Assembly (NCBI GenBank): GCA_022450665.1
Contig: JAKUPQ010000002.1
Location: 15,826 to 79,825 of the forward strand
Reading direction: 5' to 3'
Source of the DNA: Alphaproteobacteria bacterium
Lineage (GTDB): Bacteria > Pseudomonadota > Alphaproteobacteria > Rickettsiales > VGDC01
DNA length: 64,000 nt
Shown piece by piece: positions 18,807 through 44,889 of the stretch (positions within the stretch are counted from its first letter, which is position 1; each line of letters starts with the position of its first letter). The position numbers were made by a program, and so were the translations under genes. Below the pieces are notes generated by a model, which did no database searches, was not told the DNA's origin, and saw nothing but the letters and a program-made list of their open reading frames with translations.

Positions 18807-20285
18807 ATGGCAGAAACACAACAAAGCGCGACTGCACTCCAACAGGATTCTGACGCTTCCGCCGATGCGGTGCGATGGGAGAATGTGCGTAATAAATTAC
18901 GGTCTACTTTTGGCGAAGCCGTGTATCGCAGTTGGTTTGACAGCCTGAGCTTTGTTGGTATTGATAATGGCGTGGCTTTAATGTCGGCGCCCACCCGGTT
19001 CGTGCGCGAATGGGTAATGTCTAATTATGCCGATGAGTTGCGCAATATCTGGCGTCAGGAGCGCGAAGCAATATTTTCGGTAGACGTTGTGATTGGCAAA
19101 CCTGCAATAATTAAGCGTAACACCGCTACTACCCAAGCGCCTGCTGCAAGCTCTCGTGCCGCGCCTGCTGATGCGGTATCTGCATCATTGGTATATGACC
19201 GCAATGATGTTCGTAATCGTGTGGATAGCATTGACGATGAAGAAGAATTTACCATTGGCTCGCCGCTGGATCCCCGTTTTACGTTTGAGAATTTTGTTGT
19301 AGGCAAGCCTAATGAATTGGCCTATGCCGCTGCCCGCCGCGTTGCCGAAGCAGATGAAGCGCCGATTGGCTGTAACCCGCTGTTTTTACACGGTGGCGTA
19401 GGTTTGGGTAAAACGCATTTGATGCATGCGTTGGCATGGCAGATTCGTCGCGAAAACCCAAATCGCCGTGTATTATATCTGTCTGCCGAGAAATTCATGT
19501 ATCAGTTTATACGTGCGCTACGTTTTAAAGATACTATGGCATTCAAAGAAAAACTGCGCTCTGTAGATGTGTTGATGATTGACGATGTGCAGTTCATCAG
19601 TGGCAAAGACAGTACGCAGGAAGAGTTTTTCCACACTTTTAATGCGCTTATCGACCAGAAAAAGCAGTTGATTATTTCAGGGGATCGTTCGCCTTCGGAT
19701 CTGGAAGGCATTGAAGAGCGCATCCGCTCGCGCTTGGGTTGGGGCTTAGTAGCTGATATTCATTCCACCACTTACGAGTTGCGCCTTGGCATCTTGCAAT
19801 CCAAAGCAGAGCGCTTGGACGGGCTGGAAATTCCGCAAAAAGTTCTGGAGTTTCTTGCGATGAAAATTACTTCGAATATTCGGGAGCTTGAAGGCGCGCT
19901 CAACCGTGTTGTGGCGCATTCCACTCTGGTAGGGCAGGCAATCACCGTAGAAACCACACAAGATGTGCTGAAAGATTTGTTGCGCGCAAATGATCGGCAT
20001 ATTACTATCGAAGACATTCAAAAGGCCGTGGCAACGCATTACAACATTAAGCTGTCCGAAATGCATTCTGCCCGCCGTTCCCGTGTTGTGGCTCGTCCGC
20101 GTCAGGTTGCTATGTATCTTGCAAAGCGCCTCACCAGTAAGAGCTTGCCAGAAATTGGCCGCAAATTTGGCGGAAAAGATCATACCACCGTGATGCACGC
20201 GGTGAAACGCATCGAGGAATTGCGCGCTTCGGATCATGACCTTTCTGCGGATATCGAATTGCTGAATCGCGCATTGGAAAACTGA
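18807..20285 (+). CDS. dnaA: Chromosomal replication initiator protein DnaA
   Basis: Walker [17 protein letters not shown], sensor and box VII regions, and a C-terminal DNA-binding signature ([15 protein letters not shown]). Confidence 0.97.
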
Positions 20286-20395
20286 ATAATTAACAATGGG
20301 CTTTTTGTTGCCCTCAAAAGAAACCCTGACTATAGTTGGATATCATGCAAAGCTCGACCGTAGAAAAAACCAATAGCAAGGAAGTAACAGGTACC

Positions 20396-21508
20396 ATGAA
20401 ATTGGCCATAGATCGTGGCACGCTGCTCAAAGCGCTAAGCCATATCCAATCCGTAGTAGAAAAACGCGGCACGATTCCTATTTTGTCTAATGTTAAGCTC
20501 ACTGCTACTGATGGTAGCCTCAGCCTGACCGCTACCGATATGGATATCGCCGTGGTAGAAACCGTGGTAGCCAATGTTTCGGATGCAGGCTCCGCTACGG
20601 TTCCGGCGCATACTTTTTATGAAATTATCCGCAAATTGCAAGATGGCTCTGAAGTAGAGCTTATTAGCACAGAAGACGGAAAAGTTGGCATTAGCGCTCA
20701 GCAATCCACGTTTTCTTTGTCCAGTCTTCCGGTAGAAGATTTTCCTGTGATGGCCGAAGGAGATTTTAGTCATAACTACACCCTTACCGCCTCGGAATGT
20801 TCAGCATTAATTGATAAAACCCGCTTTGCCATTTCTACCGAAGAAACCCGCTATTATTTGAATGGTATTTATCTGCATGTCGCAGGTGAGAGCGATCGAG
20901 TATTACGCGCCGTAGCTACCGATGGCCACCGTTTGGCGCGTATTGAAGTGGCGCTTCCCGCTGGCGCAGATGGCCAGCCTGGCGTTATTATTCCGCGCAA
21001 AACCATTGCCGAGCTGAAAAAGCTTTTGGAAGGCGAAGTAGGCGAAGTTGAGGTGTCTGTTTCTGAAAGCAAAATTCGCTTTGTGTGCGGAAATGCGGTG
21101 CTGGTATCCAAGTTGATTGATGGCACTTTCCCTGACTATGATCGTGTGATTCCTTCTGGTAATGACAAAATTATGGAAGTGGATGCCAACCAGTTTTCTA
21201 ATGCTGTAGATCGTGTGTCGGTTATTGCTTCAGATAAGTCCCGTGGCGTGAAGCTCAAAATCGAACAAGGCAAACTCACCCTCTCGGCAAACAGCCCAGA
21301 AAATGGTACCGCAAATGAGTCACTGGAAGTGACATATGGCGCAGATCCAATTGAAATAGGCTTTAACTCCCGCTATTTGCTGGAGATGATGTCGCAAATT
21401 GAAGGCGATACCGCACAATTCGTATTGGCGGATGCATCTTCGCCCGCGATCGTGCGTGACTCTGCAGATATTGGCGCATTATACGTTATTATGCCAATGC
21501 GGGTGTGA
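20396..21508 (+). CDS. dnaN: DNA polymerase III beta sliding clamp
   Basis: MKLAIDRGTLLKAL...RYYLNGI...ATDGHRLA...MPMRV. The start was moved to the Met at 20396 for a typical length of about 370 aa. Confidence 0.95.
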   Translation: MKLAIDRGTLLKALSHIQSVVEKRGTIPILSNVKLTATDGSLSLTATDMDIAVVETVVANVSDAGSATVPAHTFYEIIRKLQDGSEVELISTEDGKVGISAQQSTFSLSSLPVEDFPVMAEGDFSHNYTLTASECSALIDKTRFAISTEETRYYLNGIYLHVAGESDRVLRAVATDGHRLARIEVALPAGADGQPGVIIPRKTIAELKKLLEGEVGEVEVSVSESKIRFVCGNAVLVSKLIDGTFPDYDRVIPSGNDKIMEVDANQFSNAVDRVSVIASDKSRGVKLKIEQGKLTLSANSPENGTANESLEVTYGADPIEIGFNSRYLLEMMSQIEGDTAQFVLADASSPAIVRDSADIGALYVIMPMRV

Positions 21509-21521
21509 GTCGGCTACGTCC

Positions 21522-22769
21522 ATGGCTAAGCCTCCTCGGATGAAAACCAATGCCGAAGCGGACATGGCTTTAGCTGTGAATGGTGCGTCTGCGACGTCTG
21601 GAATCAACCTTGCCGGACGGGTAACATCACTGCAAAAACTTACCCTTACAAATTTTCGTAACTATTCTCATGTCACTTTGTCGCTATCGCCGCAGCCGGT
21701 TGTATTAACCGGTGCCAACGGAGCGGGAAAAACCAATATACTCGAGGCAGTTTCGCTTCTGACGCCGGGCAGGGGATTGCGCCGCGCCCGCGTGATTGAT
21801 ATCGATCGCGCGTCGCCACATTCGGCAAACCCGCTACCAGTGCCATGGGCGGTCGCCGCTGTGTTGCAACAGCCTGATGGCGATTTGACCGAAGTGGCAA
21901 CCGGACGTGACGCAGAAGCTGCACTAACAGGAGCAGATCGGCGCCGTGTACGTATCGAAGGCAACGATGTTCCGCAAAGCGCTTTGGCCGATATATTAAG
22001 TGTTATCTGGCTGACGCCACAATTAGACCAACTTTTTCAAGAAGGCCAATCCGCCCGCCGGAAGTTTCTGGATCGTTTGGTTTATAGTTTCGAATCCGAC
22101 CATGCACAGCACGTAGCCGCTTATGAACAGGCAATGCGCGAGCGCAATCAATTGCTGCAAGAGCGGTGCAACGATGCAAAATGGTTTGCGGCGCTTGAAA
22201 AAAAAATGGCAGAACATGCCGTTGTGGTAGCAGCCTATCGCTTACAAACCATTGAGCGCCTTAATATAGTGATAGCACAATCGCAACGCGGCTTTCCGAA
22301 GGCAACATTAGAGCTGCATGGCGTGGTAGAAGATTTGTTGCAAAGCGGATGTGTTGCTATGGAAGCAGAGAGCCGCTTTGCAGAGCAGCTGCACCAATGC
22401 CGTCAGGCAGATAGCTATGCCGGCCGTACTTCAGAAGGCATACACCGGACTGAATGGCTGGTGTTTCATCAGGAAAAGAACATGGAAGCGGGTCAATGCT
22501 CTACCGGCGAGCAAAAGGCCGTGATGCTTTCTATTGTGCTGGCGCAAGCACGGGCGCGGGCAATGTGGGGAGTGTGCGCCCCAATATTATTATTGGACGA
22601 AGTGGTGGCGCATCTTGATCTGAAACGCCGCGCCGAACTTGCCGAGGAAATACTAGATATAGGGGTTCAGGCATGGCTCACCGGAACCGATGCTGAAGGC
22701 TTTGGTGACTTGGCCGCAAAGGCGCAATTTTTCAATGTGTCAGATGCAATTGTACGGTTGCAAAACTAA
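21522..22769 (+). CDS. recF: DNA replication/repair protein RecF
   Basis: LTLTNFRNY, Walker A GANGAGKTNILEA, and the signature SGEQK-like block STGEQKAV...LLLDEV. The start was placed after the dnaN stop; 21564 is an alternative. Confidence 0.88.
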   Translation: MAKPPRMKTNAEADMALAVNGASATSGINLAGRVTSLQKLTLTNFRNYSHVTLSLSPQPVVLTGANGAGKTNILEAVSLLTPGRGLRRARVIDIDRASPHSANPLPVPWAVAAVLQQPDGDLTEVATGRDAEAALTGADRRRVRIEGNDVPQSALADILSVIWLTPQLDQLFQEGQSARRKFLDRLVYSFESDHAQHVAAYEQAMRERNQLLQERCNDAKWFAALEKKMAEHAVVVAAYRLQTIERLNIVIAQSQRGFPKATLELHGVVEDLLQSGCVAMEAESRFAEQLHQCRQADSYAGRTSEGIHRTEWLVFHQEKNMEAGQCSTGEQKAVMLSIVLAQARARAMWGVCAPILLLDEVVAHLDLKRRAELAEEILDIGVQAWLTGTDAEGFGDLAAKAQFFNVSDAIVRLQN

Positions 22770-22817
22770 GCAGAAAAGTATAGATTATACTCTGTACCGG
22801 GAACAACTATATGTTGA

Positions 22818-25304
<2,487 letters not shown>

Positions 25305-26173: not shown

Positions 26174-28336
26174 ATGAATTTTCCTGCAAAAAAATTGGCC
26201 GATTGGCAAGCGCTGGCGCAAAAAGAGTTGAAAACTAAACCGCTTGAGGCTTTGTATTGGGATACTCCAGAGGGTATACGCATCAAGCCGCTTTATACTG
26301 CGGAGGATTTGCAGAACTTAGATGTAAGCAGCCAACTGCCTGGCTTTGCGCCCTATACTCGTGGGGTGCGTGGCACCATGTATTCTGGACGTGCATGGAC
26401 AATTCGTCAATATGCAGGGTTTTCAACGGCTGAAGAGTCAAACGCATTTTACAAGCGAAATTTAGCGGCTGGACAAAAAGGGCTTTCTGTAGCGTTCGAT
26501 TTAGCGACCCATCGCGGATATGATTCCGACCATCCCCGCGTGATGGGAGATGTTGGAAAAGCAGGTGTTGCCATAGATTCATTAGAAGATATGAAATTGC
26601 TCTTTGCTGATATTCCGCTTAGTGACATCAGCGTATCCATGACAATGAATGGCGCGGTGCTACCCATTTTGGCATTTTATATTGTGGCGGCAGAAGAGCA
26701 GGGCATCAGCCCCGATCAGCTGGCTGGAACTATACAAAATGATATTCTAAAAGAATTTATGGTGCGAAATACTTATATTTTTGCGCCCGAACCCAGTATG
26801 CGCATTGTGGCGGATATTATTGAATATACCTCCAAACATATGCCGCGCTTTAATTCGATTTCTATCTCTGGCTACCACATGCACGAAGCAGGTGCTACCG
26901 CAGTGGAAGAGTTGGCATTTACCATAGCCGATGGGGAAGAATATGTAAAAGCCGCCATGGAAAAAGGGCTGGATATTGATAGCTTCGCCCCGCGCCTGTC
27001 GTTCTTTTTTGGTATTGGCATGCATTTTTTCATGGAGGTGGCCAAGTTACGCGCGGCGCGAGTATTGTGGGCACGTATTATGCAAAATTTAGGAGCGCAA
27101 AATTCTAAATCATTGATGTTGCGCACTCATTGTCAAACCTCTGGCGTGTCGCTGCAAGCGCAAGACCCGTATAACAACGTGATACGTACAACGGTTGAAG
27201 CGATGGCTGCCGTACTAGGGGGTACGCAATCACTGCATACCAACGCTCTGGATGAAGCGATCGCGCTGCCAACAGATTTCTCGGCACGTATTGCACGTAA
27301 TACTCAGTTGATTCTAGAACATGAAACCGGCATTACACCCGTAGTAGACCCGCTTGGAGGTAGCTATTATATCGAATCGCTAACTCATAGTTTGGTGGAG
27401 CATGCATGGGCTGAAATTGAAAATATTCGTGCCATGGGTGGTATGACACACGCTATCGAGAAAGGTGTACCTAAGCGTAAAATTGAAGCCTCTGCCGCCC
27501 GTAAACAAGCGCGTATAGATGGCGGAGAAGAAGTGATTGTGGGGGTAAACCGCTTCCAACCTTCTACAATAGAAGCCTTAGATACCTTGGAAGTGGATAA
27601 CAGTAAAGTGCGGGACGGTCAGATTGCCCGTTTGAAAAACATACGCGAATCACGCGACAACGATAAATGTGCGCAAGCACTGGAGGCGCTGACGAAAGCC
27701 GCAGAAACCGGCGGCAAGAACTTGCTGCAAGCGCATATAGAAGCGGCGCGGGAGCGGGCAACATTGGGAGAAATGACCGCAGCACTAGAAAAAATATTCC
27801 CCCGTTATGATGCGCCTGTAGAAGTGGCTACGGGCGTATATAAAGATAGCTATGGCGACGTAAGCGCTCTTGAGGCAATACAGCAACGCAATACGGAAAT
27901 TGCGGCTGTTATGGGTGGTGCAGCGCGCATATACATCGCCAAAATGGGGCAGGATGGTCATGATCGTGGTGCAAAAATCATTGCTTCTGCCTATAGTGAT
28001 TTAGGATTTGAAGTTGTGGCCGGACATTTGTTTCAAACCCCACAAGAAGCTGCGCAAGTGGCCGTGGATAAAAAAGCACATATATTAGGGGTTTCCACCC
28101 AAGCTGGCGCGCATAAAACATTAGTGCCAGAGGTCATTGCGGCGCTAAAATCTCTTAATGCAGAAAATATGATAGTGGTGTGCGGTGGCGTGATTCCATC
28201 GCAGGATTATCAAGCGTTATACGATGCAGGTGTGGCCGCAATCTTTCCGCCCGGCACACCCATTCCAAAATCCGCCAATGAATTATTGGATATTTTAGAG
28301 CTGCGTCACCGCAAGGGAAACTATTTTGTAAGCTAA
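26174..28336 (+). CDS. scpA: Methylmalonyl-CoA mutase, single-chain (adenosylcobalamin-dependent)
   Basis: 720 aa. N-terminal substrate barrel ([20 protein letters not shown]-like HCQTSG) and a C-terminal B12-binding domain with the DxHxxG motif ([10 protein letters not shown]). Confidence 0.95.
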
Positions 28337-28770
28337 CGCGCTATCTGCGATGGTTCTTTCTCAGACACAACCTGCTGCCACCTTGTAGAAGGTGCATTAT
28401 CATCTAATGAAATATCGGCGGGCTGTGAAAGATGCACTGGCTTATCCATGGCAAAACGTCGCGCCAAACGCAGGTCTTCTAGCCGTACTTTTTCGGTTTC
28501 ACGCTTGTTAGATAAATAAGTGAATCCTACACCAGCAGCCATTAAACCGCCCATAAGCGCAGGGCTTTTCGCCGACTTAAAAGGCTTTTCATCGTTTTCT
28601 ACTGCTTGCACTAAACGATGCGTCAAATTGCCCAAAACACCAATAAATGTAGCACCAGCTGCCGCAAAATAGAGCGAAGAAAAAAAAGAATGTTTGCGGT
28701 GTTCACGAATAAATTGCTGTTCATAAGCATTGTCGTGATTTTGTGTAAGCAAGTCGGGGGCGTTGTTCAT
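28333..28770 (-). CDS. Small two-TM membrane protein of unknown function, located downstream of a cobalamin riboswitch
   Basis: ATG at 28768-28770 is preceded by GGAG 8 nt upstream. Two Gly/Ala-rich hydrophobic helices ([21 protein letters not shown] and [16 protein letters not shown]). The ORF track extends to a GTG at 28803. Confidence 0.6.
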
Positions 28771-28864
28771 AATGGCTCCATGCGTTAACAGTGCACATGC
28801 CACGACCGGACGAATTCCGGTGGATCCAACAAGCAGAGATTTTCCTCGATCTCTTAAATGCGTG

Positions 28865-29035
28865 TGACATGAACGGCAGGTCTACTGGCTTGCAGATTAA
28901 CGCTTACGACGCCTTCCCGGGGTTTCCAGTGGCCTGTGTCGGTTGCTGCTGCATACAGTTGCGAGGACAGCCGCAGAATAGGCTTTAAAACCGAACTGCG
29001 TTCCCTTTTCATTCTGGCTTTTTATGGCCAAAAAC
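28865..29035 (-). promoter_or_regulatory. Cobalamin (B12) riboswitch
   Basis: The minus strand reads ...GCCAGAATGAAAAGGGAACGCAGTTCGG...CTGCGGCTGTCCTCGCAACTGTA...GCCACTGGAAACCCCGGGAAGGC...AAGCCAGTAGACCTGCCGTTC. All conserved cores are present, including the B12 box. Confidence 0.85.
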
Positions 29036-29187
29036 CGTCGGCACATGCATAATTGCTTCCCTGCCAAATGTCAAGTGGTGCAAAAACCTGCAATATTGCA
29101 ATAAACCCCTTGACGTGAGCTTGTTTGAAGGGTAAAAAACACGCCTCATATTACTAATTCATACGCTTGAAGAAAAAGGTGCTTATC

Positions 29188-31537: not shown

Positions 31538-31614
31538 TGGTGCACCCGGAGCGATTCGAACGCCCGACCCCCAGATTCGTAGTCTGGTGCTCTATCCAGC
31601 TGAGCTACGGGTGC
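31538..31614 (-). tRNA. tRNA-Arg (anticodon ACG), CCA encoded
   Basis: The reverse complement GCACCCGTAGCTCAGCTGGATAGAGCACCAGACTACGAATCTGGGGGTCGGGCGTTCGAATCGCTCCGGGTGCACCA folds as a cloverleaf. The acceptor stem is GCACCCG/CGGGTGC and the anticodon loop is CTACGAA. Confidence 0.93.
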
Positions 31615-31796
31615 ATTGGTTTGTTAACCAGAATGTAGAAGCTAGTCATCTGAGCATAAAATACAAGTGTTTTTTTGGTTTTAAGCGCAATTTGTTGGCT
31701 TGAGTGGCTTTTTATCCTTTTTTCTTTTGTTAAATTCTGTAATCTAGCGGCAATAATTTGATATACGCTATATTTAGCCGTGGCTGGAGAGTATTT

Positions 31797-32192
31797 ATGA
31801 ACACTGGAAAGAATATCCGCAGTTTGTTGTTAGCGCTTATGGTAAGCGCGGCGACAATGGGCGCGGCACATGCTCAGGCCGTGAGTTATAAAGATACGCC
31901 GCTAATGGTGGTGCGCTTTAACCAGGAGCGGGTATATTATCAGCAGCAGCTTTATAATGCGGTATCGCGTGCATTAGAGGCCAAGCCAGATGTTCAGTTT
32001 AGCATTATTTCATTAGTGCCAGAAACGCAGGACAGAAGCTATAATAGGCGCATGCAGGATGAAGCGCGGCATAATACTGGCTTGTTTGTAGCCAATATGG
32101 TGAAAATGGGGTTTCCTAAAAACCGCATTCGCATAGCCTATCAAATTGGCCCCAGCATTGAATCCAATGAAGTGCATATGTTTGTGGAATAA
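31797..32192 (+). CDS. Hypothetical exported protein
   Basis: Signal peptide MNTGKNIRSLLLALMVSAATMGAAHA. About 131 aa, followed by a strong terminator. I recognise no family. Confidence 0.5.
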   Translation: MNTGKNIRSLLLALMVSAATMGAAHAQAVSYKDTPLMVVRFNQERVYYQQQLYNAVSRALEAKPDVQFSIISLVPETQDRSYNRRMQDEARHNTGLFVANMVKMGFPKNRIRIAYQIGPSIESNEVHMFVE

Positions 32193-32328: not shown

Positions 32329-32454
32329 TTAACCTTGACGCGCTTTAAGGCGCGGGTTGGTTTTGCAAATTACATATACGCGTCCTTTGCGACGCACAAT
32401 ACGGCAATCTTTGCTACGCTTTTTTGCCGATTTCAGGGAGCTCAAAATTTTCAT
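32329..32454 (-). CDS. rpmJ: 50S ribosomal protein L36
   Basis: [41 protein letters not shown] (41 aa). This is the C-terminal part of the over-extended 87-aa ORF 32329..32592. Confidence 0.9.
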
Positions 32455-32557
32455 GGCTTTGTTCCTGTAAGGTTTTGATTCATCTTTGAAGCATGTTGTA
32501 TAGTTGCTATCCCTTGTGCTGTCAATGCAAAAAGCGCATATTTGTGCGTTTTTGCGC

Positions 32558-34438
32558 TCAATGCATATGTTGCAATACCGTGGCTTTTTCATCCTCGCTT
32601 ATCGTGCTTTGCCCATGCGGCGTTTTTTCCCATATATGTGGATTCACCATCAACTGCCATAGCGCCTTGAAACTGGCTGCAGAATGGAGCAACCAATAAA
32701 CTGGAAAAGCAAATAGAGCCAGTGTCATATCCTTCCAGCCATAGCGACGGATGATAACACTGGCAAATACTAAATGTGTGATGCTTCCGAATAGTAAATT
32801 CGCCAGTGAAATTACATATACCCACTGCACTAACTTGGGGTGATGAAATTCAATTGCGCCAAAAAACCATAATCCACTTAATATCCATAAAATAGGTGCG
32901 GATAAGAATACCAGACAGGGGCCGCCAATAAAAAACTGGAAACCCCAGAATGCGGTGAAATCAAGCTCTCGCATTAGCTGCAAGGGGTGGCGCATGTGTA
33001 CCAGCCATGTTTGCATATAGCCGCGAATCCATCGCACACGTTGATTCATCCATACATTCAGCTTTATTGGTGCTTCTTCTGCGGTGAGTGAGTCCAGCAT
33101 ATCGGTTTCGTAGTGCTGCAGTGCCAATCGTATTCCTAAATCGGCATCTTCGGTAACATTATATGGATCCCATTCGCCAATCTCACGCAGTTTTTGTAGG
33201 TGAATATGGTTGCTGGTACCACCCAACGGAATGGGGATATTCATGCGCCGCAAACCGGGCAGCATAAAATCAAACCATGCGGCGTATTCAATGGCAAACA
33301 AACGTGTAAGCAAAGAATGATTACGGTTGTAGTAGTTCAAACGTGCTTGCAAGCAGATGACATGAGGTGGTTGTTTGCTGAACCAATAAACGGCTTTTTT
33401 TAGTTGCTGAGGGTCGGGAATATCTTCTGCATCATAGATAGTTACATATTTTCCACGGGCAAAATGCAGGGCATAGTTGCAGGCTTTGGGCTTGGTTTGT
33501 GGCAGTGAGTAGGGGACATGTATAATTTCATATCCGCTATGAGGCTTTAGTTTTTTAATGGCGTGAATAGTTTTGTAGTCCTCTCGTTCTACGATCAGCT
33601 TGATGTCCAGTTTGGATTTAGGGTAGTCCAGCGCATCGAGTGCTTGTAGAAGCCGTGGCAAGGTTTCTGCTTCGTCGTGCAAAGGAATCAGCACTGTATA
33701 GATTGGTAAAGATACCTCGCTGGTAGGGAGGGCATCGGCCGTAATGTATTTGCCGGGATGGTAACTTTTTCCCAGCAAAAAAAGTTGGCATTTTAATAGT
33801 ATAGTCGAGAAATAAAATATATTGAGCGAGAGGAAGGCGCCCAACATGGTTATGATAGGGTAATACATAAACGCGACAATGAAGGAGAAAACGAATGCGG
33901 CGAGCCAGAGTTTTTGCGATAAGGTAATAACGGAGCTTGCGGATTTATGTGGCATGATATTTTTTAAATTCAATCGGCTATGAGTATCAAGCTGCTCGGA
34001 AAAATGGGTGTCGATATGCCAGTAGATGTCATAGGGTGAGGTGATAACAAAATCCACATTATCTCCATAGCGCTGCTGCGCCCACTGCATTAAGGCTTCG
34101 CTTGGGTCGCTGGTGGCAAGAACCACAGTGTTGTTCTTTTTTGTAAACGGCGCGGCCTTAAAACGAATATAATCATTACAGTCTTCTTTGCGCTGCAGTG
34201 TGCTATCGGCAGGTGTATGATGCAAATTCACAAATGGTAGGCGATAATGCTGCGCGATGGCCGTGTATAGTCGCAAAATACTCACATGCCCTTGCGTTAG
34301 TAAAATACGTCCCACGCGCTCATGCGTGGTTTTTTGGATGGCCAGTGCTTCATCTAGCATCGCTTGATCGATCAATTCTTGCGATAGAAGAATTTGGCCT
34401 ACAGGGATGATGGGAGTGGAGGCGAATATTGCAGTCAT
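32558..34438 (-). CDS. Processive family-2 glycosyltransferase (membrane EPS synthase) with an N-terminal T2SSE_N/MshEN-like domain
   Basis: The N-terminal ~145 aa resemble a GspE-N/MshEN domain ([53 protein letters not shown]). GT2 motifs follow: [29 protein letters not shown] and QRVRW. There are multiple TM helices. Confidence 0.8.
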
Positions 34439-34439
34439 A

Positions 34440-35318
34440 TTAAAACTCTTGCCATAACGAAATGATTACGCCTTCGCCGCTTCCGGTGTTGCGGGCTTTC
34501 GTGTGCATAAATCCGCCAAATTGAATGCGTTTGTTCGGGGCGAATCTATATACCAGTGAAGCCTGCGACTTTACCAGATCATAATCATTTGCAAGGGTAT
34601 TAGGATTGGCAGGGCTGTTATCGTTCTGTGCGCGAAGGGTGGTGAAGTTCTGAAGCAACAACATGGTGTTATCGCTCATTGTTAAGCCAAGGGTTGCATC
34701 GGATTTCAATTGATCCTTCCAATCTCCAAAGCGCTTGCGATAAGCAAGGTCAATAAGTACAAAATGGTTGCGATTATACAATGTGAAATTATAACCGAGT
34801 TGCAATTTTAGTTCGGCATCAAAATTATCGGTTCCACTGCGCGGGGTAGAAGCATCGGCATAAAAACTTGGAAGCTTAATGAGCGGTTGTACGGAAATGA
34901 CGGTATCACGATTGAGCCATGTGCCTTGCCATAGACGGTGGCGGATAAAAAATTCTGTGTCGGCAAGGCCATAATTGGTGGCAGTTTCGCGCTGCACTGT
35001 ATTCGATGTAGCGGTATAAAATTGTTTTTCGGTAGATACTGCATGAATAAATGCATTGCCACCCAAGGTGGTGTCATCTTCCAGCCCATATTCTACATAA
35101 CCATTCCATTCCCATTTAGTAAAATTTGGATGGGCAATGGCGTTTCCATTGTCATCTATAAAATTATTGCTTGAATAATAATTAATGCTGTTGGCACTAA
35201 ACCATGTGCCTTTTTCCCGTGTCCATGCGCTGTGGGCAGGGGCAATATTAGCAAAAATAAAAAACGCCGCTATTAGTAGTAGAGCGGCGTTTCCTTTAAA
35301 TCTTTTAATAAGCGACAT
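34440..35318 (-). CDS. Outer-membrane beta-barrel protein (putative polysaccharide porin partner)
   Basis: Signal peptide ...FANIAPAHSA, alternating amphipathic beta-strand pattern rich in aromatic residues, and a terminal ...SLWQEF (C-terminal Phe). The stop codon is 1 nt from the GT2 start. Confidence 0.65.
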   Translation of the reverse strand: MSLIKRFKGNAALLLIAAFFIFANIAPAHSAWTREKGTWFSANSINYYSSNNFIDDNGNAIAHPNFTKWEWNGYVEYGLEDDTTLGGNAFIHAVSTEKQFYTATSNTVQRETATNYGLADTEFFIRHRLWQGTWLNRDTVISVQPLIKLPSFYADASTPRSGTDNFDAELKLQLGYNFTLYNRNHFVLIDLAYRKRFGDWKDQLKSDATLGLTMSDNTMLLLQNFTTLRAQNDNSPANPNTLANDYDLVKSQASLVYRFAPNKRIQFGGFMHTKARNTGSGEGVIISLWQEF

Positions 35319-35324
35319 CCAGAT

Positions 35325-35825
35325 TTAATGCAATTTCTTTTGTACATCCGTGGCGGCAGAAGCAATAAGTTCTTCACGGGATTTATCGGTGAGCTTATTG
35401 TCTACAATGTCCCGTGTGGCAGCAACAGTAATATCGATAATGCGGTTTTGCACTTCTTGAAGTGCGTGACGCTCGGCTTGTTCAATTTTATCCATTGCAA
35501 GTTTCATGCGTTTTTTAAGCTGTTCTTCCATATCTTGTTCAGATTCACGGGTAATGCGGCGGGCTTCTAGGTTCGCTTTTTGCACAATACCTTCTGCTTC
35601 TTTAAGCGATTCGCGTTGTTTTTTCTGGTATTGCGCTAAAATCACCTGTGCTTCTTCACGTAGTGCTACGGCGCGATCCAGCTCTTCACGAATTTCTACC
35701 GAACGCTTATCGAGTGCAACGGTAATAATAGGAGTGAGCTTTTTAATGAGCACTGCAACCACAAAAATCGTAGCGAGTGTCACCCAAAAGGTAGGGCTGG
35801 CTAGTAAAGGGAATTGTTCAAGCAT
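35325..35825 (-). CDS. atpF: F0F1 ATP synthase subunit b
   Basis: One N-terminal TM helix followed by a long charged coiled coil (AE/KR-rich). It is the last gene of the F0 operon. Confidence 0.85.
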   Translation of the reverse strand: MLEQFPLLASPTFWVTLATIFVVAVLIKKLTPIITVALDKRSVEIREELDRAVALREEAQVILAQYQKKQRESLKEAEGIVQKANLEARRITRESEQDMEEQLKKRMKLAMDKIEQAERHALQEVQNRIIDITVAATRDIVDNKLTDKSREELIASAATDVQKKLH

Positions 35826-36459
35826 TTGCCTTATCCTTCAACATAGCGTCAATTACAGCATCAACTTCTGTAGCTTTCAACGATTGGCCGGTAAGCTTTT
35901 CAACAATTTGCTGCGTCAACTCTTTAGAAACTGGTGCCAACTTGGCAAGAGCCTCTGTTTTTGCGTTAGTAATCGCAGCTTCCGCATCACGCATCTGCTG
36001 TTCGATCTTTTTATCCAGCTCTGCATGTCGTGCCGTAGAGGATTTCTCCATTAGGGCAGATGATTCAATAATCAGATCCTGCGCTTTTGCTCGCGATTCT
36101 TTGAGCGCACGTTCATAGGTTTCGCGTGCTTCTTCCGCTTCATTGCGCAATTGCTCTGCGCGGTCAATGTCATGACTAATTTTGTTTTGGCGGCTTTCCA
36201 GCACATCGTGAATGCGTGGTAGAATCGAACGCGCAAGCAATAGATAAAGAAATGCAAATGTTACAATCAGCCAGAAAATCTGTGAAGAAAATGTCTCAAC
36301 ATCCAGCTGGGGCATACCAGCTTTACCATGTTGTGCATTGTCTGCTTGCTGAGTTTCGGCAACAAAATTCTGGTTTTGGCTTTGTATCACCAATTCACCG
36401 TTCATATCTTGCGAAACTGCAAAATCCGATGAGGATATAGCAGGTTTTGATTGTGACAT
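35818..36459 (-). CDS. F0F1 ATP synthase subunit b'
   Basis: Second b-like subunit (MPQLD...FWLIVTFAFLYLLL plus coiled coil), placed between c and b as in alphaproteobacterial F0 operons. Confidence 0.8.
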   Translation of the reverse strand: MSQSKPAISSSDFAVSQDMNGELVIQSQNQNFVAETQQADNAQHGKAGMPQLDVETFSSQIFWLIVTFAFLYLLLARSILPRIHDVLESRQNKISHDIDRAEQLRNEAEEARETYERALKESRAKAQDLIIESSALMEKSSTARHAELDKKIEQQMRDAEAAITNAKTEALAKLAPVSKELTQQIVEKLTGQSLKATEVDAVIDAMLKDKANA

Positions 36460-36502
36460 TGCGCTATCCTTCTATTGCTTGCGCTTGTTCGACAAAGTTC
36501 AG

Positions 36503-36751
36503 TTACGCCGCAAATGCGAGGTACAAACCAATCACGAGAGAAATAATACCAAGACCCTCTGCCAGTGCCATACCAAGCATTACGAGTGGCTTGATTTTTG
36601 ATTCTGCGCCTGGGTTGCGTGCAATACCATTGATGCCTGCGGCAAAGATCATGCCCACACCAATTGCAGCGCCAATCGCGCCAAGGGTAGCCAAACCGGC
36701 ACCAATAAATTTATAGGCTTCAGCCGACTGCATAATAACTTCAGGTTCCAT
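36503..36751 (-). CDS. atpE: F0F1 ATP synthase subunit c
   Basis: Hairpin proteolipid GAGLATLGAIGAAIGVG...ARNP...MLGMALAEGLGI. The Met at 36733 is an alternative start. Confidence 0.93.
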   Translation of the reverse strand: MEPEVIMQSAEAYKFIGAGLATLGAIGAAIGVGMIFAAGINGIARNPGAESKIKPLVMLGMALAEGLGIISLVIGLYLAFAA

Positions 36752-36809
36752 GATAATACCTCTTGTAAAAATTCGTTTAGTTAATGAAGTAAAAGAAAGA
36801 TTAAAAAAA

Positions 36810-37553
36810 TCAGTGCATGTTTATCGCATCGTTTAAATAAATGCAAACCAGAAGCGCAAATACATAAGCTTGCAACACAGCGACTAAGAATTCAAAGCCA
36901 ACAAATGCAACCAGCAGCGCCAATGGCAACACACCGAAAATAGACATTTTGATAATAAAGCCTGCAACTACTTTGAGCAGTACGTGTCCTGCCATCATAT
37001 TACCTGCAAGACGTAGCGATAAGGTGATAGGGCGGGCTAAATAAGACATCAGCTCGATTGGCACGAGGAATATCATCATGACTGCAGGCGCGCCGGAGGG
37101 CACAAACAAATGAAGAAAATGTGCGCCATGCTTGATGAAGCCAATAATTGTGGCGCCAATAAAAATGAGTATAGCCATGGTAAAGGTTACGGCGATATGG
37201 CTGGTAACAGTGAAACCACCAGGAATCATGCCAAGCAGATTTGCAAATACCAAAAATGTGAATAGCGTGAAGATAAATGGGAAGTAAGCGCGGCCTTTTG
37301 TGCCGATATTCTCGCGCACCATATTGCCGATGAACTCGTAATATATTTCTACAAGTGATTGCATTCTGTCGGGTACAAGCGCACTGCGACGGATGCCCAT
37401 ATGAAAGAACAATGCAGCGGCTAGTACAGCGATTACCATAAACAGCGATGCATTGGTAAAATCTATGTTATAGCCGGCGATCTCAGGAATCTGAGGTAAA
37501 AAATCGAGACGTTTAACTTCAAACTGCTCTAGAGGGCTATGAGGTTCTGCCAC
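36810..37553 (-). CDS. atpB: F0F1 ATP synthase subunit a (GTG start)
   Basis: Conserved LSLRLAGNMMAGH block, polytopic. GGAG lies upstream of the GTG. Confidence 0.93.
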   Translation of the reverse strand: MAEPHSPLEQFEVKRLDFLPQIPEIAGYNIDFTNASLFMVIAVLAAALFFHMGIRRSALVPDRMQSLVEIYYEFIGNMVRENIGTKGRAYFPFIFTLFTFLVFANLLGMIPGGFTVTSHIAVTFTMAILIFIGATIIGFIKHGAHFLHLFVPSGAPAVMMIFLVPIELMSYLARPITLSLRLAGNMMAGHVLLKVVAGFIIKMSIFGVLPLALLVAFVGFEFLVAVLQAYVFALLVCIYLNDAINMH

Positions 37554-37562
37554 CTGAATCTC

Positions 37563-37910
37563 CTACGTTCCGTCACTATTACGCTGACTATTGGTTTTTG
37601 CCAACGCGTCATCTTCCTGTTGCTTGGCTTCAACTGAAACCGCACGATAAATATTCATTACGCCGCCTGCCATGCCCAGAAAGATTCCAAAAACGGTAAG
37701 ACCCGGGCGGGTCCCTAACCATTCATCGAGATAATACCCGAGGAATCCTCCAACGGCAACGCCGGCTATCAGTTCGGAACCGCTGCGAAATGCAACCGAT
37801 TTTCCTGCCTCCGGCACGCTTTTAAGGCGTTTGGGAGTGGATGCTTCACGCGCAGTGCTTATGCGTTCGCTCAAAGTATCCAGTGGCGGGAGGTCATCAT
37901 GTTCGCCCAT
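37563..37910 (-). CDS. atpI: AtpI/AtpZ-family F0F1 assembly protein
   Basis: Two TM helices (LIAGVAVGGFLGYYLD, VFGIFLGMAGGVMNIY). It is the first gene of the F0 operon. Confidence 0.75.
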   Translation of the reverse strand: MGEHDDLPPLDTLSERISTAREASTPKRLKSVPEAGKSVAFRSGSELIAGVAVGGFLGYYLDEWLGTRPGLTVFGIFLGMAGGVMNIYRAVSVEAKQQEDDALAKTNSQRNSDGT

Positions 37911-38031
37911 AGCTTTCAATCGCTTAAATGATTAAGGTATGCCATGCGTAAATGCCCTCTCTGACGAGGTGGGAATTTACGAGGCATACCTTATGATGTC
38001 AAGGCCTATTGTGAGTTTATTCTACAACAGA

Positions 38032-43044: not shown

Positions 43045-44889
43045 ATGTCTGAAAAATCAAACATTCCATCGCAAACCCCCGTCACTAAAAAACGCCGTAA
43101 TTATTTCGTTCTTCAAAGTCTTATGGGCATTGCAGCCGTTGGTGTAATTGGTTTGTCGGTGAGCGTTCCCAAGCCCGTAGCTACGATTAAAGAACATATC
43201 GATCAATATCAAAGCTATGCTTATACCCCAATTTTTTCGGCAGGCCCCACGGGAAGTTACCTTTCTGGACGCTATGCCGCAAATAATGGCGATTTTAAAA
43301 ATGCCGAAAAGTTTTTAGCGCGCACGCTGCAAATGGATCCGGCAAACATGGAAATTGCTGGATATACCTATCGCATGCATTTGATTACCGGTGATATGGA
43401 TGGCGCGGCCGAGATGGCTAAAATGCTCTATGAAGCCAGCGACGACGAATCAAACCCCGAAATTATGGTGCTGCTGTCTTATGTAAAGCAAGGCGATTAT
43501 GAAAATGCACGTAAAGTAGCCGCTACGTTTGATAAGTCGGGTTTTAATCTGGTGGTGCTGCCATTAATGAATGCGTGGCTGGACTTTGCCGAAGGCAAGT
43601 TGATTACCCCCGTCACACTGGATGACAGCCTAAAGAGCATAGTAGAATTTGCACCGTTTATTTATTATCAAACCGCGCTTATAAATGACTTGGCCGGATT
43701 TGAAGATGTGGCGCTAGTGCAATACGAAGAAGCGTTACATTTATCGCGCAACATGCCCTATCGCGTAGTGGAAGTACTGGGAAATCTTTATGCCCGTAAA
43801 GGGGAGTGGGATAAAGCCGAATCGCTCTACGAGCGGTATCGCAAACAAAACCCAGATTCGGTGTTGATCGCGCCAAAGCTTGCAGAAAATGCCAGAAAAG
43901 ATAAATCTCCGGCGCGTTTAGTGGCCAATATGCGCGAAGGAATGGCAGAAATATTTTTCAGCACTGCAAGCATTTTGAATAATGAAAATTTAAATGAAGA
44001 AGCGCTGATTTACATTCAACAGGTATTATATTTGAACCCTAATTTTTCTGCAGCACGTCTTATGCGTGGCACTATTTATGAAGAATTAGGCCGCTATAAC
44101 GAAGCGCTGGCAGATTATGATAACCTGACAAAAGCTACGCCATATTATCACAAAGGGCAGTTACGCAAGGCATATACGCTCAATTCTATGGAAAAGAACG
44201 ATGAAGCATTGGCATTACTGGCAGAGCTGGCGCAAAAAATGCCATCGCGTTATCAGGTGCAGCTCACACGCGGTGATATTTTAATGCGCGCTAAACGTTA
44301 TAATGATGCAAGTCAGGCCTATACTGCGGCATTGGATGCCATTAAGGATGTAAAAGGCGAACATTGGCCAATTTATTATGCTCGTGGCATTAGCTATGAA
44401 CGTACGAATGAATGGGAAAAAGCCGAAAGCGATTTTCTTAAAGCATTGGAGATCGAACCAGGTCAGCCGGATGTATTGAACTATCTCGGATATAGCTGGC
44501 TAACGCAAAATATGCGCGTTCAAGAAGCGCGCAATATGATTGAACAAGCAGTCAAAGCGCGTCCATCAGATGCACATATTATCGACAGTATGGGCTGGGC
44601 TCTCTATGCGTTGGGTGAATATGATATGTCGGTAGATTATCTGGAACGCGCTATCGAACTTATGCCTACCGATCCGACAGTGAACGATCATTTGGGCGAT
44701 GTGTACTGGCGCATGGGTCGCAAAATTGAGGCGCGTTATCAATGGAAGCGTGCGCTGCTATTCGATCCAGAGCCGCAGCATGCTGAAGAGTTGTCGCTCA
44801 AGCTGGTCAATGGATTGCCGCCACATGAAACGTTGCAAACAGCAGAAAACGAAACTCCTGTTAAACGTGCAGAAGTGCGTCAAAACTAA
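43045..44889 (+). CDS. TPR-repeat protein with N-terminal membrane anchor
   Basis: 614 aa with repeated TPR-like 34-aa units (e.g. AYTAALDA..., W.KAESDFLKALEIEP, AIELMPTDP) and one N-terminal TM helix. Confidence 0.8.
   Translation: MSEKSNIPSQTPVTKKRRNYFVLQSLMGIAAVGVIGLSVSVPKPVATIKEHIDQYQSYAYTPIFSAGPTGSYLSGRYAANNGDFKNAEKFLARTLQMDPANMEIAGYTYRMHLITGDMDGAAEMAKMLYEASDDESNPEIMVLLSYVKQGDYENARKVAATFDKSGFNLVVLPLMNAWLDFAEGKLITPVTLDDSLKSIVEFAPFIYYQTALINDLAGFEDVALVQYEEALHLSRNMPYRVVEVLGNLYARKGEWDKAESLYERYRKQNPDSVLIAPKLAENARKDKSPARLVANMREGMAEIFFSTASILNNENLNEEALIYIQQVLYLNPNFSAARLMRGTIYEELGRYNEALADYDNLTKATPYYHKGQLRKAYTLNSMEKNDEALALLAELAQKMPSRYQVQLTRGDILMRAKRYNDASQAYTAALDAIKDVKGEHWPIYYARGISYERTNEWEKAESDFLKALEIEPGQPDVLNYLGYSWLTQNMRVQEARNMIEQAVKARPSDAHIIDSMGWALYALGEYDMSVDYLERAIELMPTDPTVNDHLGDVYWRMGRKIEARYQWKRALLFDPEPQHAEELSLKLVNGLPPHETLQTAENETPVKRAEVRQN

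Follow-up and report, generated by a model that had tools for sequence, protein, structure and literature searches.

The 64,000-nucleotide stretch of DNA analysed here (the window) is part of contig JAKUPQ010000002.1 from an uncultured alphaproteobacterium and carries, on its reverse strand, two adjacent genes related to xagA and xagB of Xanthomonas (Table 1). The upstream gene codes for a protein of 292 amino acids (aa), referred to as XagA. A single base (position 34439) separates its stop codon from the ATG start codon of the second gene, which lies on the same strand and codes for a protein of 626 aa, referred to as XagB. Both open reading frames (ORFs) and their 1-nt spacing had been described in an initial annotation of the window and were recovered at the same positions. 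Judged from their sequences, both genes are real and encode a membrane-bound sugar-polymer synthase with a probable sensor for cyclic diguanylate (c-di-GMP) and a small outer-membrane barrel. We estimate a probability of roughly 70% that the pair is orthologous to XagA and XagB, the central components of the biofilm-polysaccharide system encoded by xagABCD in Xanthomonas, reduced here to two genes, with polymer synthesis and export proceeding as proposed below.

The N-terminal MshEN domain previously read from the XagB sequence was recovered by profile searches, with scores above the cut-off for both Pfam PF05157 (38.1 bits, cut-off 23.1, residues 65–150) and NCBIfam NF053729, an MshE-related c-di-GMP-motif domain (44.7 bits, cut-off 38, residues 13–63). 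Three Pfam families of glycosyltransferase family 2 (GT2) matched the same protein with E-values of 1e-16 to 5e-11. The catalytic motifs listed in the annotation (D, DxD, TED and QRVRW) correspond to D287, D336-A-E-D339, T429-E430-D431 and Q466-R467-V-R469-W470, which were invariant in 68/68 members of a family alignment, and a further invariant motif (P600..W603.K605-T606.H608) follows the last membrane helix. Transmembrane helices had been placed on both sides of the GT2 core, in agreement with hydrophobic helices at residues ~174–222 and ~497–598, with hydropathy peaks and with a model generated by AlphaFold2 (AF2; predicted local distance difference test score (pLDDT) 94.7, predicted template modelling score (pTM) 0.93). 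In this model, the chain passes from an N-terminal domain composed of a helical bundle and an alpha/beta part through a long linker helix to two membrane helices, the GT fold, the interface helix bearing QRVRW and three long helices. Structurally, the GT core and the membrane helices came closest to BcsA (4P00) and the hyaluronan synthases of Chlorella virus and Xenopus, and the XagB family profile matched BcsA with an E-value of 7e-18, its N-terminal part matching the c-di-GMP-binding domains of PilF/MshE. Because of the modelled fold and the profile match to BcsA, XagB is read as a putative combined synthase-translocase. Unlike BcsA, it carries MshEN in place of PilZ (no PilZ match was obtained) and has fewer membrane helices, and no BcsB is encoded at the locus.

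Loci of the Xanthomonas type were obtained in two ways. A 79-aa fragment of XCC0678 was taken from the supplement of PMC5013675 and used as a protein-database query; it returned three fragments only, which led to locus L004. A scan of species-representative genomes yielded the locus of X. cucurbitae (L010). XagB aligned with residues 23–635 of X. cucurbitae XagB at 42% identity (613 aa, E 2e-145) and with its L004 counterpart at 47% identity over 460 aa (E 1e-144), the MshEN part showing 34% identity to L004 (E 4e-17). XagA aligned end to end with the XagA of L004 at 25% identity (E 7e-20), and a hidden Markov model (HMM) of XagA and the Xanthomonas XagA each found the homologues of the other. 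Close relatives of the synthase were named 'glycosyltransferase XagB' and one relative of the barrel 'protein XagA' by the Joint Genome Institute (JGI). Both proteins are full-length homologues of their Xanthomonas counterparts, and the order of the genes (xagA, then xagB, tightly coupled) and the W-x-F ending of XagA are shared. So is the layout of XagB, with N-terminal MshEN, two transmembrane helices, GT2 and C-terminal transmembrane helices, and the Pfam matches of X. cucurbitae XagB fall in the same arrangement. In Xanthomonas, by contrast, xagC and xagD, a gene of glycoside hydrolase family 113 (GH113), follow downstream, neither of which is found here, and XagA is ~50 residues longer than in the present alphaproteobacterium. 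The Xanthomonas operon is regulated by the diffusible signal factor (DSF) and Clp, whereas the pair described here lies behind genes for the F0 part of ATP synthase.

According to Tao, Swarup & Zhang 2010, as cited in PMC3609779 and PMC8042644, xagABC(D) constitutes a glycosyltransferase system needed for biofilm formation in Xanthomonas. Expression of the xag genes rises when RpfG, a phosphodiesterase of c-di-GMP, or Clp, a regulator that responds to c-di-GMP, is lost (PMC3609779, PMC8042644), and xagA and xagB are both required for the biofilm of rpfG mutants (PMC3609779). The need for the genes in forming a biofilm-matrix polysaccharide and their higher expression at raised c-di-GMP are findings of genetic work in Xanthomonas (PMC3609779, PMC8042644).

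The annotation had likened the pair to the E. coli NfrB/NfrA system. Similarities to this system (PMC8669469, PMC8669472) include a GT2 domain with DxD, TED and QxxRW motifs fused to MshEN, a motif I starting with Pro-h-Gly, an outer-membrane partner encoded next door and the logic of a synthase-dependent pathway. However, the MshEN domain is C-terminal in NfrB and N-terminal in XagB, NfrA is a large protein with tetratricopeptide repeats (TPRs) and a barrel as opposed to a 292-aa barrel devoid of TPRs, and the Nfr system comprises the periplasmic protein YbcH, whereas no further gene belongs to the unit described here. The NfrB equivalog NF008411 reached 45.7 bits (cut-off 1170) through its MshEN part only, with model positions 482–642 aligning to XagB residues 11–169. 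An assignment to NfrB/NfrA was rejected on the grounds of the reversed domain order, this score and the different type of partner, and the full-length homologues XagA/XagB took its place as the nearer relatives. The BcsA, PgaC and XrtG/XrtP-associated GT2 families were likewise rejected on their curated cut-offs (TIGR03030 (CelA), 61.3 bits, cut-off 699; TIGR03937 (PgaC), 62.1 bits, cut-off 422).

Contrary to the notion that an MshEN domain in front of GT2 is unusual, the architecture proved common. XagB had matches in at least 7991 clusters (90% identity), and almost every one of the 120 best shared its length and domains. In the supplement of Wang et al. 2016 (PMC5013675), XCC0678 appears under the label 'NrfB' among the MshEN proteins predicted to bind c-di-GMP, with its MshEN domain starting at residue 14, and the N-terminus given there is that of the Xanthomonas XagB retrieved here. 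The 'reversed NfrB' architecture has therefore been on record since 2016, with c-di-GMP binding as a prediction. At least 599 stretches related to XagB were found in species-representative genomes. Among the best 80 of these, most alignments spanned query residues ~13 to ~615, and the sources were Xanthomonas, many Alphaproteobacteria, Mucilaginibacter, Paenibacillus, Actinomycetota, Chloroflexota, cyanobacteria and others. For XagA-like proteins, an exhaustive profile search gave 1969 representatives of clusters with E ≤ 1e-3. A survey for the pairing of an MshEN-GT2 synthase with an outer-membrane protein, as the annotation had suggested, detected a match to the XagA HMM within 7 kb of xagB in ~22/84 loci, all of them from diderm lineages (Proteobacteria, Acidobacteriota, Nitrospinota, Aquificota, Ignavibacteria and Synergistota); no such match was present within this distance in the loci from Actinomycetota, Bacillota or Chloroflexota. 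The pair thus represents a further member of the XagA/XagB family and no new kind of system, the family being widespread, known genetically and biochemically unstudied.

XagA has a signal peptide (residues 1–30, ...APAHS/AW) and ends in WQEF, consistent with the exported barrel with a terminal Phe that had been proposed, and its AF2 model comprises 12 strands (mean pLDDT 87.1, pTM 0.80). Its sequence lacked Pfam and NCBIfam matches, and neither Pfam nor the AF2 model indicated a TPR. The nearest solved folds were the COG4313 channel (4RL8) and FapF (5O65/5O67), both 12-stranded (template modelling score about 0.6–0.69, with 0.61–0.64 for the best matches 4RL8 and 5O67; Foldseek E ~3e-8). Sequence identity to these proteins is ~11%, no sequence-family membership was detected for XagA, and their substrates are hydrophobic small molecules and amyloid subunits, respectively. 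Strands 5 and 6 are joined by a long, strongly conserved loop (residues 149–166, LPS...PRSGTDNFD), in which 4/18 columns (P150, P159, G162 and D167) were invariant among the 23 sequences compared. Strand counting places this loop on the extracellular side; it may fold into the lumen in the manner of porin loop L3 and constrict the pore.

A number of observations weigh against the proposed reading of the pair. As concerns the barrel, AlgE, BcsC, PgaA and PelB were all outside the top 50 Protein Data Bank (PDB) matches of the XagA model. The known outer-membrane porins for exopolysaccharides (EPS) are 16- to 18-stranded barrels, usually with a TPR domain, and no 12-stranded barrel is known to export a polysaccharide. 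Instead of forming an export pore, XagA could anchor the glycan at the outer membrane or bind it as a receptor, or it could be a channel that passes small or hydrophobic molecules and is simply inherited together with xagB. Apart from the smaller number of strands, such a role would fit the best fold matches, a channel for hydrophobic substrates (4RL8) and the amyloid-subunit channel FapF rather than AlgE, BcsC or PgaA, as well as the Mucilaginibacter loci with xagB and no detectable xagA and the stalk-forming iron oxidisers that possess xagBCD without xagA (PMC4643136). Nonetheless, the pairing of the two genes is tight and ancient, with 1-nt gaps or gene overlaps in six diderm phyla, and XagA is not found beside xagB in monoderm lineages. 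Moreover, deletion of xagA or xagB reduced the elevated biofilm of an X. oryzae rpfG mutant in like manner (PMC3609779). We therefore regard a role of XagA other than export as unlikely.

As concerns the sensor, the two tandem c-di-GMP motifs that had been noticed previously map to residues 12–35 and 41–64, and their length of 24 residues each with a 5-residue spacer is the arrangement also seen in crystals of MshE (PMC5013675). XagB residues 13–122 aligned without gaps to VcMshE (5HTL; phmmer, E 2.6e-8). At the ligand-contact positions of VcMshE, which correspond to XagB residues as R9→P12, L10→V13, G11→G14, L25→L28, L29→L32, Q32→Q35, R38→R41, L39→V42, G40→G43, L54→L57, L58→I61, Q61→H64 and D108→D111, 10/13 residues are identical or conservatively replaced; R9→P12 and Q61→H64 deviate, as does position 10 of motif I (Gly to Glu). 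Neither this Glu (in place of Gly, Ala or Ser) nor His at position 24 of motif II (in place of Gln) is part of the published relaxed pattern. The R9A variant of MshE loses c-di-GMP binding (PMC4624772), and binding of the nucleotide by an XagB is not on record for any species. Scanned with regular expressions, the ORFs of the window with at least 100 aa contained no GGDEF, EAL, HD-GYP or PilZ signature. Pfam scans of 28 of the larger ORFs outside the pair and two short unannotated ORFs revealed no GGDEF, EAL or PilZ domain either, so that the statement in the annotation that the window contains no GGDEF or EAL gene holds. In an Rfam scan of the window, the sole hits were a cobalamin riboswitch and a single tRNA; riboswitches for c-di-GMP were absent.

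These deviations could indicate a constitutive synthase whose MshEN domain is a degenerate scaffold that serves structural or oligomerisation purposes without sensing c-di-GMP, output being set by co-transcription with the ATP-synthase genes. In favour of this possibility, the pair resides in a housekeeping block near dnaA, 6 nt behind atpF, no c-di-GMP enzyme was found in the window, and many MshEN domains no longer bind the ligand according to Wang et al. (PMC5013675). However, the hydrophobic positions that stack on the guanines are kept together with G14, Q35, R41, G43 and D111, the motif is conserved through the XagBs of the clade, and the score for NF053729 exceeded its cut-off. Pro is the commonest residue at the first position of motif I in the XagB family (26/68) and His the majority residue at position 24 of motif II (38/68), whereas Glu at position 10 of motif I is unusual (3/68). 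The same Pro is present at the Arg9 position in motif I of E. coli NfrB (supplementary sequences of PMC5013675), which shows high affinity for c-di-GMP (PMC8669469), and the window represents only a small part of the genome. Loss of c-di-GMP sensing is accordingly judged to be quite improbable.

Residue conservation, the analogy to NfrB (PMC8669469) and the regulatory context in Xanthomonas together lead us to infer that XagB is probably activated by c-di-GMP through its MshEN domain. Roelofs et al. predicted that the xag operon encodes a c-di-GMP receptor (PMC4624772). In a metagenome-assembled genome (MAG) of another alphaproteobacterium (L016, 4862–13991), a gene for a diguanylate cyclase with receiver and GGDEF domains (REC-GGDEF) is situated inside a fuller xag-like cluster, so that xag genes and the synthesis of c-di-GMP are directly linked in a genome. 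This cluster encodes a 697-aa protein, XagB, a 678-aa XagC-like protein, the REC-GGDEF protein, XagA and, on the opposite strand, a GH113 hydrolase.

As concerns the product, no nucleotide-sugar gene was found in the window, and no periplasmic partner (BcsB-like, XagC-like or TPR protein) or glycoside hydrolase is encoded near the pair, although such components are usual in the synthase systems studied so far. Larger xag clusters elsewhere add genes for a BcsB-like protein, an XagC-like protein and a GH113 hydrolase (XagD); in the window, tblastn searches identified no homologue of XagC, XagD, the BcsB-like and XagC-like proteins or the GGDEF protein. The absence of a TPR or periplasmic partner noted in the annotation thus holds for the locus itself. 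On the opposite strand, at a distance of 8 kb (43045–44889, +), a 614-aa protein with an N-terminal inner-membrane anchor and many TPRs is encoded, with nothing to link it to the pair or to mark it as a partner. In L001, too, a 613-aa TPR protein is encoded in the vicinity of the syntenic block.

The product of X. cucurbitae xagD (L010, 10130–11098) is a GH113-family glycoside hydrolase (E 8e-32). GH113 is a family of beta-mannanases. Endomannanase has been reported to disperse Xanthomonas biofilm (PMC8042644), and this observation, in combination with the GH113 genes in other xag clusters, weakly hints at a mannose-containing beta-glycan as the Xag polymer, whose identity 'remains to be established' (PMC8042644). 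Rather than a secreted exopolysaccharide, the product of XagB could be one that stays in the periplasm or bound to the membrane, for instance a glycolipid or an oligomer resembling osmoregulated glucans. This would agree with the automatic annotation of some XagB-like proteins as monoglucosyldiacylglycerol synthase (PMC4643136), the lack of a hydrolase or periplasmic scaffold and a housekeeping operon context suggestive of an envelope component, but is very doubtful in view of the invariant TED and QxxRW motifs, the BcsA/hyaluronan-synthase-like fold including the membrane helices, the dedicated outer-membrane partner and the phenotype of the Xanthomonas genes in the biofilm matrix (PMC3609779, PMC8042644).

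In the proposed mechanism, XagB would be located in the inner membrane, where its cytosolic GT2 domain would polymerise a beta-linked glycan from a nucleotide sugar. The growing chain would be threaded through a channel formed by the membrane helices of XagB itself, as in BcsA and hyaluronan synthase, and the 12-stranded barrel of XagA would then carry it across the outer membrane or anchor it there. The functional part of the earlier proposal, a minimal synthase-dependent polysaccharide secretion system, is consistent with all of the computational evidence and with the bare two-gene locus, while its novelty had been overstated. Particular to this locus are the two-gene form, the position behind the F0 ATP-synthase genes and a barrel family for which there is no Pfam model.

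Table 1. Coordinates of the xagAB pair, the regions of XagB and the adjacent features in the window.
Feature	Position	Strand	Basis
xagA-like gene (292 aa; outer-membrane protein, predicted 12-stranded beta-barrel)	34440-35318	-	ORF list, AF2, homology
xagB-like gene (626 aa; predicted inner-membrane processive GT2 synthase with N-terminal MshEN)	32558-34438	-	ORF list, domain matches, homology, AF2
XagB: MshEN_N, c-di-GMP-motif region (residues 12-64)	34247-34405	-	NF053729, 5HTL alignment, family motif conservation
XagB: MshEN_C subdomain (residues 65-150), including D111 (= MshE Asp108)	33989-34246	-	PF05157, 5HTL alignment
XagB: two N-terminal transmembrane helices (residues ~173-223)	33770-33922	-	AF2 helices 173-192 and 194-223; hydropathy peaks
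XagB: GT2 core and interface helix (residues ~245-481)	32996-33706	-	Pfam GT2; invariant motifs; profile match to BcsA
XagB: C-terminal membrane helices (residues ~494-598)	32645-32959	-	AF2 helices 494-525, 534-566 and 572-598; hydropathy
atpI	37563-37919	-	ORFs; Pfam on identical contig L085
atpB	36810-37553	-	ORFs; Pfam on identical contig L085
atpE	36503-36751	-	ORFs; Pfam on identical contig L085
atpF'	35818-36459	-	ORFs; Pfam on identical contig L085
atpF	35325-35825	-	ORFs; Pfam on identical contig L085
Weak terminator-like element after the xagB stop codon (GCGCA...TGCGC and TTTTT; low confidence)	32529-32557	-	Read from sequence; scan gave the region on the + strand only
Promoter-like site of rpmJ (TTGACA-17-TATACA)	32525-32497	-	Sequence
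rpmJ (ribosomal protein L36, 41 aa), next gene downstream	32329-32454	-	Translation; Pfam Ribosomal_L36 on identical contig

The F0 genes form a block (35325–37919, -) directly upstream of xagA, and the stop codon of atpF is separated by 6 nt from the ATG of xagA. As this spacing leaves no room for a promoter, the arrangement points to a probable co-transcription of xagAB with the F0 ATP-synthase genes in this clade. The order atpF-xagA-xagB was found in 11 loci of a single clade of uncultured Alphaproteobacteria and is common to L001, L005, L008, L012, L017 and L086–L090; where downstream genes were read, rpmJ comes next after xagB in most of these loci. Their XagB proteins share 67% down to ~41% identity with that of the window and form one clade in a neighbour-joining tree, and the organisms are labelled 'Alphaproteobacteria' or 'Rickettsiales bacterium' by NCBI. 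In L012, the xagA homologue (6091–6986) is split over three reading frames, representing either a pseudogene or an assembly error. The entire block RNaseHII-DciA-DsbA-atpIBEFF'-xagAB(-rpmJ) is syntenic. Since the flanking genes for RNase HII, DciA and a DsbA-like protein are thus included, vertical inheritance of a stable block is sufficient to account for the linkage to atp genes, without any need for a functional connection with ATP synthase.

The genes dnaA, dnaN, recF and gyrB are arranged in a row (18807–25304, +), which places the window close to the replication origin. The pair lies ~10 kb away from them, and the GC content is flat across it; xagAB is located in a core housekeeping region near the origin and not in an island. 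The position behind the F0 genes suggests that transcription in this clade is constitutive and that control is left to the second messenger. A bolder interpretation, which we consider possible but tentative, holds that XagA represents a new class, and the smallest, among the exporters of polysaccharide in the outer membrane, provided with a constricting loop, which together with XagB would form a complete two-protein trans-envelope system devoid of a periplasmic scaffold, TPRs or a hydrolase and which, in one alphaproteobacterial clade, would be hard-wired into the F0 operon to supply a constitutive envelope glycan tuned only by c-di-GMP.

Several further features of the window were recorded. 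The rpmJ gene is hidden within a mechanically called 87-aa ORF that overlaps the end of xagB. A small secreted protein with a signal peptide, ~105 mature residues and no Pfam match is encoded at 31758–32192 (+). Its gene is also located next to rpmJ/xagB in L001 and L005, L086 and L090 have unannotated genes of comparable size at this place, and the protein may be linked to the xag pair. A tRNA-Arg(ACG) gene lies at 31538–31614 (-). The cobalamin riboswitch (28858–29051, -; 100.8 bits, Rfam) is situated directly upstream of a 156-aa ORF (28333–28803, -) that contains hydrophobic segments and has no Pfam match. The 3' end of this ORF overlaps by 4 nt the 3' end of the gene for B12-dependent methylmalonyl-CoA mutase on the opposite strand (26174–28336, +), and its product could be an uncharacterised B12-related membrane protein. 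Two tandem paralogues of 426 and 415 aa (1547–2827 and 2967–4214, both +) are 35% identical (E 1e-63) and contain hydrophobic stretches rich in Gly and Ala without belonging to any Pfam family. Finally, 60782–61984 (-) codes for a fusion of a response-regulator receiver with a SpoIIE/PP2C phosphatase.

The position in the atp block is a curiosity that leaves the basic classification unchanged, namely the correct domain reading of a known but under-studied family. The name of the Xag system dates from 2010. The system occurs in thousands of genomes, and the present locus contains it at its simplest, as two genes without accessory proteins. In this form, it is a convenient target for studies of the activation of GT2 enzymes by MshEN, the export of a glycan by a 12-stranded barrel and the identity of the Xag polysaccharide.

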